A stretch of DNA of 32,000 bases from an unicellular cyanobacterium SU2 (GTDB taxonomy: Bacteria > Cyanobacteriota > Cyanobacteriia > Cyanobacteriales > Microcystaceae): NCBI GenBank assembly GCA_002110465.1, contig NEED01000001.1, positions 127,650-159,649 on the forward strand. Reading direction: 5' to 3'. Shown here in pieces: positions 1-8,690 of the stretch (the first letter of the stretch is position 1; every line of letters starts with the position of its first letter). Position numbers and translations under genes: made by a program. The notes under the pieces are model-generated. The model was given only the letters and a program-made list of their open reading frames with translations, was not told where the DNA came from and did not search any database.

Positions 1-1293
1 GTTTATATTGTAGTGATGGTCGTCTATAGTCCCTTATTAACTGCGGTTGCTTTAGGCATTGTTCCTATTTTTGTGGTAATGACCCTCATCTTCTCCCCCA
101 CCATCCGTCGTCAACTGCGGACAAAGGCTGAGCGCAACGCCCAAACGCAGTCCTATCTCGTCGAAGTGATGTCAGGCATTCAAACCGTTAAAGCCCAAAA
201 TATTGAATTGCGATCGCGTTGGCAATGGCAAGATAAATACTCCCGTTACGTCTCAGCAGGGTTTAATACCGTCATTACCTCCACCCTAGCCAGTTCCACC
301 AGTAACTTCCTGAATAAACTCTCCGGGCTATTGGTGTTATGGGTCGGAGCATATTTAGTGCTACAAGGAGATCTAACTCTGGGGCAATTGATCGCCTTCC
401 GAATCATTGCCAGTTACGTAACATCTCCCATTCTGCGCTTAACCCAACTTTGGCAAAACTTCCAAGAAACCGCCCTGTCCTTAGAACGGTTAGCCGACAT
501 TGTAGACACCCCCCAAGAAGCTGAACAAGACAGACAAAACATTCCGATGCCATTAATTCAAGGGGCTGTCAAGTATGAAAAAGTCTGTTTCCGTTTCAAA
601 AAACACGGCCCCTTACAACTCTACAATGTAGACCTGGAATTTCCCCCAGGAACCTTTGTCGCCGTGGTTGGGCAAAGTGGAGCCGGCAAAAGTACCCTAA
701 CCAAATTGATGTCACGGCTTTATGAACCAGAGTCAGGGCGCATCCTCATCGATAACTACGACATTTCTAAAGTGGAATTATATTCTCTGCGTCGTCAAGT
801 CGGGGTCGTTCCTCAAGATACCCTCTTGTTTGATGGTACAGTACAAGAGAATATTGCCCTAACTAACCCCGATGCTAGTATCGAAGAGATCACAGAAGCC
901 GCCCAAGTGGCAGCCGCCCACGACTTCATTATGACCCTGCCGAGTGGTTACAATACCAGAGTTGGAGAACGGGGAGCTGCTCTATCAGGGGGACAAAGAC
1001 AAAGGATTGCGATCGCTCGCTCTGTCTTACAAAGACCTCGGATTCTATTGTTAGATGAAGCCACTAGCGCGTTGGACTATGCAACCGAACAGCAAGTTTG
1101 TCTAAATTTATTGGAGGCTTTTAAGGATACCACCGTCTTTTTTATTACCCATCGTCTTGGTTCGATTAGAGGGGCTGATGTTATTGTCATGATGGATTCA
1201 GGGTCTGTGGTAGAACAGGGAACTCATGAAGAGTTAATGGCCAAGAAGGGGCGATATTACTCATTGTATCAACAACAAGAAGCAAATCAGTAA
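1..1293 (+). CDS. ABC transporter permease/ATP-binding protein, HlyB / bacteriocin-exporter type (type I secretion); 5' end cut by window edge
   Basis: Reading frame stays open back to base 1. Hydrophobic TM segments are followed by Walker A GQSGAGKST, ABC signature LSGGQRQRIAIAR, Walker B ILLLDEATSALD and H-loop FFITHRL. An HlyD-family gene lies directly downstream. Confidence 0.9.
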   Translation, partial: VYIVVMVVYSPLLTAVALGIVPIFVVMTLIFSPTIRRQLRTKAERNAQTQSYLVEVMSGIQTVKAQNIELRSRWQWQDKYSRYVSAGFNTVITSTLASSTSNFLNKLSGLLVLWVGAYLVLQGDLTLGQLIAFRIIASYVTSPILRLTQLWQNFQETALSLERLADIVDTPQEAEQDRQNIPMPLIQGAVKYEKVCFRFKKHGPLQLYNVDLEFPPGTFVAVVGQSGAGKSTLTKLMSRLYEPESGRILIDNYDISKVELYSLRRQVGVVPQDTLLFDGTVQENIALTNPDASIEEITEAAQVAAAHDFIMTLPSGYNTRVGERGAALSGGQRQRIAIARSVLQRPRILLLDEATSALDYATEQQVCLNLLEAFKDTTVFFITHRLGSIRGADVIVMMDSGSVVEQGTHEELMAKKGRYYSLYQQQEANQ

Positions 1294-3135: not shown

Positions 3136-3150
3136 TACATATGTAAGCTT

Positions 3151-3184
3151 CCCACGACTACCCTACGTTAACTAAAGTCGTGGG
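3151..3184 (+). terminator. Hairpin downstream of the HlyD gene (candidate intrinsic terminator)
   Basis: 9-bp stem cccacgact / agtcgtggg with a 16-nt loop, followed by gtttct. Starts 16 nt after the stop codon. Confidence 0.5.
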
Positions 3185-3277
3185 GTTTCTGTAGCCCTGC
3201 TGAATCCACATATTTAAACTTCAACAAAGGCAAGCCATTTCAGACAAGGAAAAATCAGGGTTTGTTGAAACAAGCTC

Positions 3278-3340
3278 TTGACTGTTATTGACAATTACTA
3301 TAAATTAAGTTTTAGATTATTGAGAATAATTCTTGATAAT
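3278..3340 (+). promoter_or_regulatory. Candidate flavodoxin promoter (TTGACT 3278-3283, TATAAA/ATAAAT 3299-3305) with an overlapping/downstream FurA-like iron box (3316-3340)
   Basis: 3317-3327 ttattgagaat is the exact reverse complement of ATTCTCAATAA. As I recall it, that is the core of the Anabaena FurA consensus AAATAAATTCTCAATAAAT. The flanks are AT-rich GATAAT-like hexamers (cttgataat). The site lies 57-80 nt upstream of the flavodoxin ATG. Confidence 0.55.
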
Positions 3341-3396
3341 TTACAAGTCAATCTTGACTAAAGAAAACCTAAAAAAATCAATTTTCAAGGTTAAAA

Positions 3397-3909
3397 ATGA
3401 ACAAAATAGGCTTATTTTACGGTACACAAACAGGTAAGACAGAAGCAGTAGCAGAAATGATTCAAACGGAACTTGGAGGGGAAGATACAGTAGATTTACA
3501 GGATATTTCTACTGTTGAGCCTAAAGAATTAGAAAATTATGACTATTTGATCATCGGCTGTCCTACTTGGAACATTGGTGAGCTACAAGGTGATTGGGAT
3601 GGTATTTACGATGATTTAGACGATATTGATTTTAATGGCAAAACAGTTGCTTATTTTGGGACAGGAGATCAAATCGGCTATAGTGACAATTTTCAGGATG
3701 CCATTGGTATTTTAGAAGAAAAAATTAGTGGATTGGGCGGAAAAACTGTCGGTTATTGGCCAACCGATGGTTATGACTTCAGCGAGTCCAAGGCAGTGAA
3801 TAATGGCAAGTTTGTGGGTTTAGCTCTTGATGAAGATAATCAACCAGAATTAACAGAGCAACGAATTAAGACTTGGATAGGTCAATTGAAGAACGAATTT
3901 GGCTTGTAA
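3397..3909 (+). CDS. isiB: Long-chain flavodoxin
   Basis: 170 aa. N-terminal FMN phosphate loop GLFYGTQTGKTE, CPTWNIGELQ, YFGTGDQIGYSDNFQDA and the long-chain insertion. Full-length match to the remembered cyanobacterial flavodoxin pattern. Confidence 0.95.
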   Translation: MNKIGLFYGTQTGKTEAVAEMIQTELGGEDTVDLQDISTVEPKELENYDYLIIGCPTWNIGELQGDWDGIYDDLDDIDFNGKTVAYFGTGDQIGYSDNFQDAIGILEEKISGLGGKTVGYWPTDGYDFSESKAVNNGKFVGLALDEDNQPELTEQRIKTWIGQLKNEFGL

Positions 3910-4162
3910 GTTAGATCTTTTATCAGGTTTAGTTTGGATTATGTCTAGTCCGAGATCTTGCACCTGATCTTGAAAACCTGATTGTGAATTAAATGACAAG
4001 GAATTCAAGAGGGTTTAGTGCCTCCCCAAATCAATTTTTGGGGGACTTGTTGAGAATGGTGCAAGCTCTGAGTATTCCCCTGTTGCTCCTTCTCCTTAGT
4101 TATCACTCGGAAGAAGGGGTTTTCTTCCCATTACTTACTCGATTAATTTACGGCAAAGATTA

Positions 4163-4903
4163 ATGATGTCTCAGTTTCCTCATGCTCTATGGGTAAATGT
4201 TAATCCCAATTTGCGAAGATTTGATCAACCCCTGCTTAATATCTTATCTCAGCACACAGTAATTGCTGAATGGGAGTATTGTCAAACTCCCGATGAACCG
4301 GCTTCCTTAGAAATTGCCCTAGTCTTGTTAGAGGACTATCTTAAACAATGTGACCATCCCGTTCATCTACTTGGTCATGGAACAGGTGGACTAATCAGTT
4401 GGCTTTATACTCTTCGCCATCCCAAACGAGTTAAATCCTTAACATTACTTTCTGTGGGGGCTAATCCAGCAGTTGATTGGCAAGCTTATTATTTTGAACA
4501 GCTGAATCTGCTGCCATGTTCTCGTGAAATTTTGTTAACACAGATGGTTTACAATCTTTTCGGTCGTCAATGTCCAGTAATTACCCGAAAATATCGTAAA
4601 ATTCTTGACCAAGATTTGGGTCTATCCCTATCTCCCCATAACTTGTATCAGCGACTGCACATCTCACCAAAAACTATTCCAGTACCTCTTTTGGTTTGTG
4701 GAGGAGAACATGATGTCGTTATTAGTTCTAACCTATGGCAAAAATGGAAGTCTTGGTTGAAAGAGGGTGATCGTTTATGGCAATGTTTAAAGGGTCGCTA
4801 TTTCTTTCATGCTTCTTATCCACATCGAGTCAGTTATCAAATTGAAGATTTTTGGGACTCTTTAGTTTCTGTCCCTGCTTCGACTTATGAAGAGTCCAGG
4901 TAA
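4163..4903 (+). CDS. alpha/beta-hydrolase-fold protein with atypical nucleophile elbow (GHGTGG)
   Basis: 246 aa. Elbow-like HLLGHGTGGL, later acid-position motif CGGEHDVV and a C-terminal His (FFHASYPH), as in alpha/beta hydrolases. The Ser of GxSxG is Gly. Confidence 0.6.
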   Translation: MMSQFPHALWVNVNPNLRRFDQPLLNILSQHTVIAEWEYCQTPDEPASLEIALVLLEDYLKQCDHPVHLLGHGTGGLISWLYTLRHPKRVKSLTLLSVGANPAVDWQAYYFEQLNLLPCSREILLTQMVYNLFGRQCPVITRKYRKILDQDLGLSLSPHNLYQRLHISPKTIPVPLLVCGGEHDVVISSNLWQKWKSWLKEGDRLWQCLKGRYFFHASYPHRVSYQIEDFWDSLVSVPASTYEESR

Positions 4904-4998
4904 AATGAATGAATACAATTAGGTTTTAGACTAAAGTGAAGGTCGGCTCAAGATAAAAAAATATTGGCTGATTTTTCACTTTTCTCGACAATAGTGTC

Positions 4999-6255
4999 AT
5001 GGATTTACTTGAATATCAAGCGAAAGAACTTTTTCATCGGGTGGGTATTCCCATTTTGCCATCCCAACCCATCGCTAATCTCAGTGAAATCAAACATCTC
5101 CAGATTCCCTATCCGGTCGTGTTAAAGTCACAAGTGCGTTCTGGGGGTCGTGGCAGGGCCGGAGGTATCCGCTTTGTAGAAAATACTATAGATGCGATCG
5201 CGGCTGCTCAAGCAATTTTTAGTCTGGCGATTTTAGGAGAATATCCTGAAGTAATCTTGGCAGAAGCTCGCTATGATACCCAATCAGAATTTTTCCTCTC
5301 AGTTCTTCTTGATTATCAACTTCAGCGTCCAGTTTTACTCGGGTCAACCCGAGGGGGAATTGAGGTGGAAACTCTCCTGAAGAATATTGAAAAAGTCGTG
5401 GTTGATGGAGACTTTTCCCCTTTTTACGCTCGCCGTCTAGCAACTAAAATGGGACTTAAAGGGGCATTGATCCCAACGGTAAGTTCTATTATCGAAAAAA
5501 TGTACCAAATTTTCGTAGAAAAAGATTTGGATTGGATTGAAATCAATCCTTTAGCAGTAAGTCCCACTGGAGAAGTGATGGCCTTAGATGGCAAAATCGC
5601 CGTCAATGATGCAGCATTGTTCCGTCATGAGGATCTTGTCGCATTACTAACGCCTCAGAAATCAGAAAGTTCTTTAATCAGCCTAAGAGAGGTTGAAGCT
5701 AAATCCTTTTCTGTCATTGAAGCTTCTCAAAAAGACGGTAAAATCGCTATGATTAGTAACGGCTGGGGATTGACTCTCACCACTTGGGATCTATTCGTGA
5801 ACCAAAAAGTGAATCCAGCTTGTGCTTGGATACTTAACGAACAAGAAGGGTTAACCGCTTTAGGAGAACAGCTAACGATTGCCTTAAAACAGGCCATGAA
5901 ATTAACTCATTTAAGGGTTATCCTAGTTAATGTTTTAGGTGATGCGAATACTTCTGAGGCCGTCGCTCAAGTAGTTGCCGATTGCTGTCAACCTTACCTT
6001 AACGGTGTCAACAACCTTCGGGAAGATCGCTTACCTCGACCAACAGGGACTAACGCCATTGATCGTCAACGGGGTCGTCAATCTCAAGGCTATTCAGTCC
6101 CATTCAAGGAACTTCCCCCTTTAGTCGTTCGCCTGGTTGGGGGAAATTTTGAACCGATTAAAGAAAGTCTTTGTGACTTGCCGATTGACTGGGTAGAGGA
6201 TTTAGAAGAAGCGATCGCCAAAACAATTTCTCTTATAACTCCTCAAAAGAAATAA
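4999..6255 (+). CDS. sucC: Succinate--CoA ligase beta-subunit-like ATP-grasp protein (divergent)
   Basis: 418 aa. N-terminal MDLLEYQAKELFHRVGIP, VLKSQVRSGGRGRAGGIRFV, EINPL and LDGKI match the SucC ATP-grasp half. The C-terminal half is recognisable but eroded. Confidence 0.8.
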   Translation: MDLLEYQAKELFHRVGIPILPSQPIANLSEIKHLQIPYPVVLKSQVRSGGRGRAGGIRFVENTIDAIAAAQAIFSLAILGEYPEVILAEARYDTQSEFFLSVLLDYQLQRPVLLGSTRGGIEVETLLKNIEKVVVDGDFSPFYARRLATKMGLKGALIPTVSSIIEKMYQIFVEKDLDWIEINPLAVSPTGEVMALDGKIAVNDAALFRHEDLVALLTPQKSESSLISLREVEAKSFSVIEASQKDGKIAMISNGWGLTLTTWDLFVNQKVNPACAWILNEQEGLTALGEQLTIALKQAMKLTHLRVILVNVLGDANTSEAVAQVVADCCQPYLNGVNNLREDRLPRPTGTNAIDRQRGRQSQGYSVPFKELPPLVVRLVGGNFEPIKESLCDLPIDWVEDLEEAIAKTISLITPQKK

Positions 6256-6355
6256 GTAGTCTTAACCTTAATTGAGGCAAAACTTAACAACACACAGGGT
6301 TATTTTTTGGTTTAATTCCACTAGGAATCCACTTTAACGAGACAATAGCTAATTT

Positions 6356-7258
6356 ATGAAATGGCAAGCTGACAGCAAAATTCTCATCCAAGGGATTACG
6401 AGTCCTCAGGGAGTTATTTATGGGGATCGGATGAAAGAATTTGGAATGAATATTGTGGCAGGAATTAGTCTTAATGGCGACATCTCTCAGGTAGGTGAAA
6501 TTCCTGTCTTTAATTTAGTAGAACAAGCCATCACTCAGCTTGGAGACATTGATATTAGTTTGATTTTTACCCCTCCTCATGAAGTATTAGATGCTGCTTT
6601 AGAGGCTATGGCATCAGGGATTCAACAATTGGTGATTGTGTCTGGGGGAGTTCCCCCCTTAGATATGGTCAAACTTCTTCATCAAGCACAAGTTAACAAT
6701 ACGTTTATTTTAGGGTCAGGCAGTCAAGGGTTAATTATTCCTGATAAGTTTTGGTTAGGGATTGGTGAGTATTCTTTTTATAGTCCTGGCGCGGTGGGAA
6801 TGATTAGTCGTGGCGATCGCCTTCTTGATGAAGTGGCTAGGGAATTAACTCAAGCTAAGTTAGGCCAGTCCCTCGCCGTTAGTTTAGGAACAGATTTAAT
6901 TATTGGCTCAAATTTTGAGCAGTGGTTACAAATAATTGAAGAAGATGATACCACTAAGGTAATTGTTCTCTTAGGCAAGTGCGACAGCTATGCTGAAGTC
7001 TCTGCGGCCGAATATATTGCGTCAGCTATTGAAAAACCAGTCATTGCTTATATTACCGGAATTCATGCTCCGATTGAACGAAATTTTCGAGATGCTAAAA
7101 CCATTGTGGCAGCCCAACTCTCTTCTTCTAGGGGACAGGTTTCTTCAGACCAAGCGATCATGGATGCTTTCAAAAAAGCGAAGGTTAAGGTAGCCAAACA
7201 TCCGTTTGAGATTGTTAAGCTAGTTAAAGCCTCTCTTTCTCGTAAATCTTCTAAGTAG
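6356..7258 (+). CDS. sucD: Succinate--CoA ligase alpha-subunit-like protein (divergent, no GHAGA loop)
   Basis: 300 aa, collinear by eye with E. coli SucD: ILIQGITSPQG vs VICQGFTGSQG, GMISRGDRL vs GIVSRSGTL, KPVIAYITGIHAP vs KPVVGYIAGVTAP. Confidence 0.75.
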   Translation: MKWQADSKILIQGITSPQGVIYGDRMKEFGMNIVAGISLNGDISQVGEIPVFNLVEQAITQLGDIDISLIFTPPHEVLDAALEAMASGIQQLVIVSGGVPPLDMVKLLHQAQVNNTFILGSGSQGLIIPDKFWLGIGEYSFYSPGAVGMISRGDRLLDEVARELTQAKLGQSLAVSLGTDLIIGSNFEQWLQIIEEDDTTKVIVLLGKCDSYAEVSAAEYIASAIEKPVIAYITGIHAPIERNFRDAKTIVAAQLSSSRGQVSSDQAIMDAFKKAKVKVAKHPFEIVKLVKASLSRKSSK

Positions 7259-7466
7259 TTGGTCACAAGTAACGTTAACTGTGAGGTTGGGGAACGCCGG
7301 AACAGGTAAGGGTTGTACCCTTGTTAACATAATTTGATATGGTGCTGTTTATTTATGTCCGACTGCGTAATTTTTGGGGATGAACAATTATCAATTAATA
7401 AAACCAAAAAGATTTTTATTCCTGAAGAATCTAATACAAACTTGTCTTTATTTTTAGCCCCTTAAC

Positions 7467-8690
7467 TTAATTCTTTAACGTTTCAAGCTGTGGTTCTCCT
7501 TTTTCGCTAATCCAAGCCAGATTTTTAATGCTACTTTGCACTGCATAATTACGAATTTCTTCTGGAGAACGTTCCTTCAATTCTAGGGCGACCCGTAAAT
7601 TTTCTGGAGACTGTCTGAGTTGTTGAGCATAACTAAACGCTATCGATTGAGCTTGGGGGGTTTTAGCAATGACTAACCAATCAATAAGAGGGGGAGTTTC
7701 AGGTAAAATAGACGTTGGTAATAAACAAGTGTATAGGTCTTCAAGATTAAAGGAAAATCCAATACCTGGGGCTGATTTTTGTTGAGGATGATAAACCCCA
7801 AGCAGTTTGTCATAGCGTCCTCCTTGACCTAGAATATGCAATTGATTATCTGTTTTTCCAATGGCTTTAAACACAATTCCTGTGTAGTAATCAAAGGTTT
7901 GAATCAAACTTAAGTCCAAGGTTAATGGCAAGGAAGCTGAACGACTATTCTCAACGAGTTCAACTAAATTTTTTAGATTTTCAACACTTTTTTGTCCAGG
8001 TTCATCTAACTCTAAGTCAACCACTTGTTGAAGTACCTGAGTCGGATTTCCCCGTAAATCAAATAATAGTTTCGCCCGTTTTTTTAACTCAGGAGAAGGA
8101 TAAGTAAGGGTTTCTAAGGTCACATAGTCTAGTTTAGCTAAACAGTGACGTACCTGATGTTTAAGAGAACTGGGAAAGGGATTAAGCAGCGATCGCGTCA
8201 GTCGAGCTTCCCCTAAAATTAAGTGCCAGTGGGGAATTCCTAATTGTTCGAGACAGTCAGCCACTAATAATAATATTTCTGCATCGGCTAACACTCCTCC
8301 ACAGAAAAGCAATTCTACCCCTGCTTGATAGAATTCTAGTTGTTTTCCATGATGACCCACAGGGGGATTACGAAAAACATTGGCACGGTAACAAAGGCGT
8401 TGGGGATAGGTCATTTCAGCCATGCGAGTGACGGCAGCTCGGGCAATAGAGGCTGTTAATTCTGGTCGTAGTCCTAGGTGTCCTGCTGAATTATCTTGGA
8501 GTTGAATGACCGTTGAGGGGTCAATTGCTCCTCCAGCCATCAACGTTTCTAGCCATTCAATGGTGGAAGTAACAATGCGTTGGTATCCCCATCCACCAAA
8601 GACTTGTTGAAGACGATCATTAATCCATGCTTTTCGGACAACTTCGAGGGGAAGTAAATCTCTTGCTCCGGCTGGTGGTTGATGAATCAT
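7467..8690 (-). CDS. hisZ: ATP phosphoribosyltransferase regulatory subunit (HisRS paralogue)
   Basis: 407 aa. N-terminal PAGARDLLP motif and class-II aaRS-like core (FRNPPVGHHGKQLEFYQAGVEL, GQGGRYD). No obvious anticodon-binding extension. HisS itself cannot be fully excluded. Confidence 0.7.
   Translation of the reverse strand: MIHQPPAGARDLLPLEVVRKAWINDRLQQVFGGWGYQRIVTSTIEWLETLMAGGAIDPSTVIQLQDNSAGHLGLRPELTASIARAAVTRMAEMTYPQRLCYRANVFRNPPVGHHGKQLEFYQAGVELLFCGGVLADAEILLLVADCLEQLGIPHWHLILGEARLTRSLLNPFPSSLKHQVRHCLAKLDYVTLETLTYPSPELKKRAKLLFDLRGNPTQVLQQVVDLELDEPGQKSVENLKNLVELVENSRSASLPLTLDLSLIQTFDYYTGIVFKAIGKTDNQLHILGQGGRYDKLLGVYHPQQKSAPGIGFSFNLEDLYTCLLPTSILPETPPLIDWLVIAKTPQAQSIAFSYAQQLRQSPENLRVALELKERSPEEIRNYAVQSSIKNLAWISEKGEPQLETLKN

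Follow-up and report, generated by a model that had tools for sequence, protein, structure and literature searches.

An isiB-isiC pair and a succinyl-CoA synthetase-like pair without the phosphohistidine are very likely unrelated neighbors in a unicellular cyanobacterium

When three genes follow one another on the same strand, and each of them retains a recognizable enzyme fold but lacks a textbook catalytic feature of that fold, the question arises whether they belong to a single module or are neighbors by accident. Such a stretch is present in the genome of the unicellular cyanobacterium SU2, in a 32,000-nucleotide segment of contig NEED01000001.1 (positions 127,650 to 159,649) that we refer to as the window; the coordinates given for SU2 features are those of the window unless a contig is named. 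The three open reading frames (ORFs), all intact, encode an alpha/beta-hydrolase-fold protein and homologs of the two subunits of succinyl-coenzyme A (CoA) synthetase (SCS), SucC and SucD, with intergenic gaps of 95 nucleotides between the hydrolase gene and sucC and 100 nucleotides between sucC and sucD:

4163..4903, + strand, 246 amino acids: alpha/beta-hydrolase-fold protein with Gly73, Asp184 and His216, assigned below as an isiC ortholog
4999..6255, + strand, 418 amino acids: SucC-like beta subunit with a conserved ATP-grasp half and an unconserved C-terminal half with an insertion (TIGR01016, motifs)
6356..7258, + strand, 300 amino acids: SucD-like alpha subunit with Asp246 in place of the phosphohistidine and Lys208 in place of Glu208 (TIGR01019, motifs, structural model)

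The sequence-only reading of this DNA took the shared loss of catalytic features for the mark of a co-evolved three-gene unit. The observation itself stands, inasmuch as the ORF coordinates, the motifs and the structural models all agree with it. The unit does not: very likely, the stretch comprises two unrelated units, isiB-isiC and a sucC-sucD pair that lacks the catalytic histidine, which are neighbors in this lineage only. Moreover, in both units, the erosion, judged from comparison of the sequences, is an old, family-wide state rather than private drift in three neighboring genes.

The comparison of gene neighborhoods carries this conclusion. We fetched 80 cyanobacterial loci around SucD homologs with 6-kb flanks. 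In about 75 of these loci, the sucC gene immediately precedes sucD, and a homolog of the hydrolase within 6 kb of sucD was found in none of the 80, nor was a homolog of the flavodoxin that precedes the hydrolase gene in the window. In a whole-genome search of 40 relatives, the hydrolase was detected in 17 and SucD in 36 (three of the 36 being weak matches); where both the hydrolase and sucCD are present, they are located on separate contigs or at distances from 110 kb to several Mb (110 kb in genome G029, 320 kb in G034 and Mb-scale in G020, G021 and G028). Two genomes (G012 and G025) encode the hydrolase and lack sucCD, and all seven genomes of the same genus encode sucCD and lack the hydrolase. 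A lack of synteny with sucCD in other genomes had been named beforehand as the observation on which the proposed module would fall, and since this is what the genomes show, the three-gene module is refuted. Three same-strand genes about 100 nucleotides apart do not, besides, by themselves exceed the chance expectation for a bacterial genome. When all ORFs from the 80 loci were clustered, no further family emerged as a companion of sucCD. The genes for an ABC (ATP-binding cassette) exporter and an HlyD-family protein, considered as conserved partners, were rejected as such because they recur only in a Crocosphaera-like subclade, a limitation that fits synteny by descent.

What, then, is the first gene? 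The matches of its product to alpha/beta-hydrolase families in Pfam are only partial; the AlphaFold model (predicted local distance difference test, pLDDT, 91.6) matches more than 1000 alpha/beta-hydrolases in the PDB at template modeling (TM) scores of 0.6-0.69. The protein is 48% identical over 235 amino acids (E = 2e-77) to a protein encoded in a Synechocystis genome, assigned to this genus because its SucD shares 94% identity with a named protein from Synechocystis. There, the hydrolase gene belongs to an array that consists of a photosystem II (PSII)-family gene (342 amino acids, GTG start), a 59-codon Cys-rich ORF, a flavodoxin, the hydrolase, DUF2555 and DFP. Gene for gene, this array matches the published Fur-regulated isiA-isiE-isiB-isiC(sll0249)-isiD-dfp operon of Synechocystis (PMC8634477), so the hydrolase is, by homology and gene order, the ortholog of IsiC (sll0249), and its conserved partner is the upstream flavodoxin, isiB. 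A flavodoxin homolog is located directly upstream, on the same strand, of the hydrolase ortholog in seven of 12 loci. In Picosynechococcus sp. PCC 11901, the order is a PSII-family gene (isiA), flavodoxin, hydrolase, and in Chroococcus sp. FPU101, several isiA paralogs are followed by flavodoxin, an ORF of 100 amino acids and the hydrolase. The window gene resembles isiC of Synechocystis sp. PCC 6803/6714 (isiA(E)BCD-dfp) in the alpha/beta-hydrolase fold of its product, in its length (about 250 amino acids) and in its position directly downstream of isiB on the same strand; in contrast to the Synechocystis operon, the window copy has no adjoining isiA, isiE, isiD or dfp. An HlyD gene is found upstream of the isiB-isiC pair instead of isiA, and the sole isiA-like PSII-family gene of the genome is on another contig (G000:C17:8183-9151). 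The window hydrolase has no other homolog in its own genome.

In the window protein, the nucleophile elbow reads GHGTGG, with Gly73 in place of the serine, and Asp184 and His216 are retained. Catalytic serine hydrolases of this fold combine a serine in GxSxG with an acid and a histidine, a combination that this protein does not possess. The IsiC family comprises 622 homologs, with an invariant aspartate and 22 invariant alignment columns, and among 120 homologs, the nucleophile column contains Gly in 62, Ser in 57 and Ala in one. The acidic aspartate is invariant in these 120 proteins, the histidine is present in 110, the complete Ser-Asp-His triad in 52 and Gly-Asp-His in 57. This split between glycine and serine across the family implies that the missing serine is an old family polymorphism and not a local erosion. 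The Synechocystis IsiC (L148:1673-2449) differs from the window protein in the opposite sense, as it retains the serine (GHSTSG) and has Gln at the position of the catalytic histidine (YFFQF). Different lineages of IsiC, then, lack different members of the triad. We infer that the window IsiC is not a serine hydrolase and, from its sequence and fold, that it would be a binding or non-hydrolytic protein expressed together with flavodoxin under iron stress. Non-catalytic or receptor proteins of the alpha/beta-hydrolase fold, with incomplete or non-hydrolytic triads, namely NDRG2/3 and DAD2/D14/KAI2, are among the structures that match the IsiC model at TM 0.6-0.69; the identity to these is only 10-17%, so the resemblance is at the superfamily level only. 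The first gene accordingly gains an identity and a partner, and the nearly even division of the family between Ser and Gly bears on the role of IsiC in the iron-stress response.

How the two units came to be adjacent is suggested by the genes upstream, which, together with the inserted segment, are the following:

1..1293, + strand: 3' part of an ABC exporter gene, belonging to the ancestral backbone; homologs 87% identical are found upstream of HlyD-sucC-sucD in L007, L009-L012 and L014
1405..3135, + strand: HlyD-family membrane-fusion protein (Pfam HlyD_3 and HlyD_D23), the backbone gene that adjoins sucC in relatives
3136..4998, + strand: inserted segment of 1.86 kb with flavodoxin and isiC, between HlyD and sucC; absent from relatives
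3313..3345, strand not assigned: AT-rich tract GATTATTGAGAATAATTCTTGATAAT, a Fur-box-like candidate read from the sequence, upstream of flavodoxin
3397..3909, + strand: long-chain flavodoxin of the isiB type (NCBIfam FldA, 256 bits, and TIGR01752, 244 bits, both above the cut-off)

The order ABC-HlyD-sucC-sucD is contiguous in seven Crocosphaera/Cyanothece loci (L007 and L009-L014), where the HlyD homologs are about 70% identical to the window protein. The gap between HlyD and sucC is 24-29 nucleotides in five relatives and 177 nucleotides in a sixth (L014), compared to 1863 nucleotides in the window, where it holds exactly flavodoxin and isiC. Since HlyD directly adjoins sucC in the sister lineages, flavodoxin-isiC is an insertion here, and the simplest reading of the gene order is that a backbone of ABC-HlyD-sucC-sucD received isiB-isiC as a cassette. 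Under this scenario, isiB-isiC corresponds to the distal genes of the cyanobacterial iron-stress operon isiA(E)BC(D), detached from isiA and lodged as a unit of two genes between HlyD and sucC, and the apparent three-gene module would be an accident of that insertion. In the five loci with gaps of 24-29 nucleotides, sucCD is perhaps co-transcribed with the type I secretion pair. On the SU2 contig, a terminator-like hairpin read from the sequence (3151-3184) follows the HlyD gene and precedes the AT-rich tract and the start of flavodoxin; the tract itself contains a 5-1-5 palindrome and a GATAAT hexamer, which makes it a putative Fur box.

Two points weigh against a complete separation of the units. 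The genes isiC and sucC are on the same strand, with a 95-nucleotide gap and no detectable terminator between them, so that read-through is possible in this organism; and the isi operon of Synechocystis reads through into a CoA-biosynthesis gene, so a link between iron and CoA is not absurd (PMC8634477). These points also feed the idea that, through the insertion, isiB-isiC-sucC-sucD became a new transcription unit, which would be co-expressed under iron stress and perhaps functional even though the arrangement is not conserved. The common orientation, the short gaps, the presence on the + strand between 3909 and 7258 of only one terminator-like site, a weak one inside sucD, and the known read-through of the isi operon into downstream genes are all compatible with this possibility. 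However, the arrangement is unique to this genome among the 80 loci and the 40 relatives, and the promoter-like and terminator-like sites found by scanning 3300-7600 are as numerous as in shuffled background. Furthermore, the position of sucC within 24-29 nucleotides of HlyD in relatives indicates that expression of sucCD was originally independent of the isi genes. We consider such a combined transcription unit unlikely.

The second unit poses a question of its own, namely, whether it still encodes an SCS. The SucC-like protein matches TIGR01016 over the full length of the model with a score of 219.6 bits, below the cut-off of 375.55; the SucD-like protein scores 201 bits against TIGR01019 (cut-off 353.2) and 204 bits against NF004230 (cut-off 336). 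SucC retains the ATP-grasp motifs VLKSQV, GGRGRAGG, EINPL and LDGK, has lost the C-terminal site-I motifs (NGWGLTL in place of NGAGLAM, NEQEGL in place of DVGGGA and NVLGDA in place of NIFGGI), and carries an insertion of about 40 amino acids. In SucD, comparison with solved SCS structures shows that MGHAGA, which harbors the phosphorylated His246, is replaced by FRDAKT, with Asp at this position, and that GEIGG is replaced by GKCDS, so that Glu208 becomes Lys; SRSGTLTYE, GIGGDP and GPNCPG read SRGDRLLDE, SLGTDL and GSGSQG, respectively. The histidine of GIHAP (His237) was considered as an alternative catalytic residue and rejected, as it is not conserved. The fold itself is retained: the SucD-like model (pLDDT 87.4) has the two-domain CoA-binding/CoA-ligase fold, with TM of 0.84-0.87 to 3UFX_A, 1OI7 and 1JKJ_A, and its only low-confidence segments are 239-246, the loop that ends at Asp246, and 255-262. 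Thus, the pair shares with the ADP-forming SCS of Escherichia coli (1JKJ/2SCU) and Thermus (3UFX/1OI7) the adjacent beta and alpha genes, full-length homology (E = 1e-40 and 1e-44), the alpha fold and the ATP-grasp residues, and differs in the phosphate-cap loops of both subunits, the CoA-thiol loop GPNCPG, the GGGA/FGGI motifs and the insertion of the beta subunit, and the two substituted catalytic residues of the alpha subunit, with scores of 201-220 bits against cut-offs of 353-376.

No second, canonical SCS was found elsewhere in the genome; the window genes are the only SCS-like genes in an assembly that is 100% complete. Nor is the condition peculiar to SU2. Among 251 genomes of the phylum, SucD scores above the curated cut-off (412-464 bits) in 31, none of them in the class of the window. 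Within that class, scores reach 322 bits at most, and no match was obtained in 11 small genomes belonging to a single family; in the motif survey, the 30 sequences from outside the class were fully canonical. The homologs of the window protein are annotated as SucD or simply as CoA-binding proteins in Rippkaea, Crocosphaera, Gloeothece, Synechocystis and diatom endosymbionts. A group that retains the histidine (H-type), from Oscillatoriales, Leptolyngbyales, Chroococcidiopsis and others, keeps SRSGTLTYE, GEIGG and GHAG, whereas the group of the window has lost all three. The H-type proteins belong to the same orthologous family, with the same sucC-sucD order and 45-50% identity to the window pair, but differ from the window clade in the conservation of the catalytic motifs, so that they may still be enzymes.

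Phylogenetic analysis of 106 SucD sequences, rooted on canonical outgroups, placed the H-type as a paraphyletic base from which the histidine was lost twice. The first loss maps to the base of a clade of 44 sequences (support 99), which includes Synechocystis, Microcystis, Crocosphaera and Picosynechococcus and in which the position is now D, N or S. The second, independent loss occurred in a family of eight genomes (f7, loci L130-L137; support 100) that is sister to Chroococcidiopsis and, from the position expected in the tree, probably corresponds to Nostocales. In this family, the SucD histidine is replaced by Gln and GEIGG by GQPGG, and in SucC, the Gly-rich loop of the ATP-grasp domain is degraded (AERAKAGG) and the Mg-binding aspartate is lost (LNGK). 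The Picosynechococcus genome in our set (G189), which we take to be, probably, that of PCC 7002, encodes an IsiC that shares 98% identity with its counterpart in Picosynechococcus PCC 11901, and its SucD reads CYDAGT, that is, belongs to the Asp type.

In the His-less clade, both genes evolve under purifying selection, with ratios of nonsynonymous to synonymous substitution rates (dN/dS) of 0.06-0.21 for sucD and 0.10-0.28 for sucC across many pairs. In the beta subunits of this clade, EINPL and LDGK show no variation, and VLKSQV and the Gly-rich loop hardly any; conservation of the ATP-grasp half equals or exceeds that seen in canonical enzymes, and the C-terminal half is almost devoid of conserved residues. 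It could be argued that all three genes are decaying remnants on the way to loss, with the missing residues reflecting drift, given that each of them lacks a textbook residue and that half of SucC is poorly conserved. The low dN/dS values, the intact ORFs, the retention of sucCD even in endosymbiont genomes of 2.5-3.1 Mb, the invariant columns of the IsiC family and the confident models of IsiC and the SucD-like protein all contradict this explanation; neither dN/dS near 1 nor frequent frameshifts in close relatives were seen. We regard decay as highly improbable. Rather, the sucCD pair is a clear case of clade-wide loss of the SCS phosphohistidine under selection, which, within the oxygenic cyanobacteria sampled, occurred twice.

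Several observations on the distribution of these genes can be added. Adjacency of sucC and sucD is common but not obligatory: in a genome of the same genus (G007, 4.8 Mb), the two genes are about 690 kb apart (C1:543392-544627 and 1237231-1238106), and in Synechocystis salina (L023), there is no sucC within 6 kb of sucD. In two endosymbionts of the same genus (G001 and G003), the SucD match includes one internal stop codon (TAA or TAG), the position of which fits an alignment that overruns the natural C-terminal stop rather than a pseudogene. A contig labeled Candidatus Gracilibacteria (L017, JAAUUT010000007.1) carries a cyanobacterial sucCD that is 62% identical to the window pair and clusters with Hydrococcus, and so is probably mis-binned. 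Family f19 (L144-L146) consists of hyper-divergent SucD-like genes (89-110 bits) with unrecognizable site-I motifs and no SucC within the fetched flanks.

The suggestion made in the sequence-only reading, that a repurposed ATP-grasp complex derived from SCS is encoded here, gains from these results as far as the sucCD pair is concerned, with its intact ATP-grasp site, clade-wide loss of the histidine and site I, and purifying selection, and fails for the trio. We consider it likely, from the substitutions described above, that the canonical three-step mechanism of SCS cannot run in a His-less pair. We favor the reading, based on the sequences, that the two proteins would bind nucleotides as a heterodimer and would act in the metabolism of succinate and CoA thioesters either as a regulator or as a catalyst other than SCS. 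In mechanistic terms, the SucCD-like heterodimer would still form and still bind ATP/ADP, would be unable to run the phosphohistidine-coupled interconversion of succinate and succinyl-CoA, and may serve another, nucleotide-dependent or regulatory role that touches on the same metabolites.

The principal alternative is that the pair is a working SCS, with Asp246 serving as an acyl-phosphate carrier or with direct transfer of the phosphate. An intact ATP-grasp site and strong purifying selection are what one would expect of an active enzyme, and SCS activity is assumed in reviews, in which SucCD "probably" interconverts succinate and succinyl-CoA. The available genetics can be read the same way. 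In Synechococcus 7002, the delta-sucCD mutant does not grow under high-CO2 sparging, and its succinate and malate are at about 60% (light) and about 40% (dark) of the wild type (PMC5160925); in Anabaena 7120, an engineered module that produces succinyl-CoA loses its effects when sucCD is deleted (PMC12508105). Either phenotype would also be compatible with residual activity toward succinyl-CoA, and to that extent the two count against a non-SCS role. These two are the only cyanobacterial sucCD phenotypes that we found in the literature, and our literature search found no mention of the missing SucD histidine. Given the Asp type of the Picosynechococcus genome, the PCC 7002 phenotype very probably concerns a His-less pair; it is the main evidence that such a pair still acts around succinate and, at the same time, the main evidence against calling the pair inert. 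The second His-less lineage, in turn, matters for the interpretation of the Anabaena result.

Against retention of SCS activity stands the position of the histidine itself, which is D, N or S in the first His-less clade and Q in the second. Asn and Gln are unable to carry phosphate, and with Asn, Ser or Gln found there in relatives, the aspartate is an unlikely substitute carrier; we rejected Asp246 in this capacity. Glu208, the helix-cap loops SGT and NGAGL, and the succinate-site motifs FGGI and GGGA are all replaced as well, the alternative His237 is not conserved, and the family scores are far below the curated cut-offs. The metabolic context points the same way: none of the five canonical producers and consumers of succinyl-CoA searched for in this genome was found, with no detectable E1 component of 2-oxoglutarate dehydrogenase, methylmalonyl-CoA mutase, DapD or MetA, and DapL is present and used. 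On this evidence, a functional SCS appears quite improbable. On balance, it seems probable that the "SCS" pair of most model cyanobacteria, including Synechocystis, Microcystis, Crocosphaera and Picosynechococcus/PCC 7002 as well as, through the separate loss, the Nostocales-like family, is not SCS but a repurposed ATP-binding heterodimer with an undescribed function. Should this be the case, the SCS step in the metabolic maps and flux models of cyanobacteria would be wrong for these lineages, and the published delta-sucCD phenotypes would report on the function of the repurposed pair. The loss of the histidine extends to those strains whose sucCD is commonly taken for SCS, which opens a direct and cheap biochemical test of this step of the metabolic models.

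Finally, small ORFs adjoin isiC in the window and in other genomes. The three-gene module, as originally delimited, started at 4056, which is the start of a short ORF that overlaps the start of the hydrolase gene:

4056..4163, + strand: putative hydrophobic mini-ORF of 35 codons, MVQALSIPLLLLLLSYHSEEGVFFPLLTRLIYGKD, the stop of which overlaps the isiC start (TAATG)

This ORF has no detectable relatives. Elsewhere, isiC is adjoined, in eight of 12 loci (L084-L091) and in Chroococcus (L096:5702-6004), by members of a family of ORFs of about 100 amino acids, which has no Pfam match on record and is absent from the window. The mini-ORF was considered as a remnant of this Cys-rich family and rejected, there being no similarity, and for the same reason the family was rejected as IsiE after comparison with the 59-amino-acid IsiE-like ORF of the Synechocystis genome. 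Members of the family have an N-terminal hydrophobic helix and the conserved motif KLHQIPCxxCxFFTGDYRLKCTVxP...C.DFE, and the Chroococcus member overlaps the start of isiC by 4 nucleotides.

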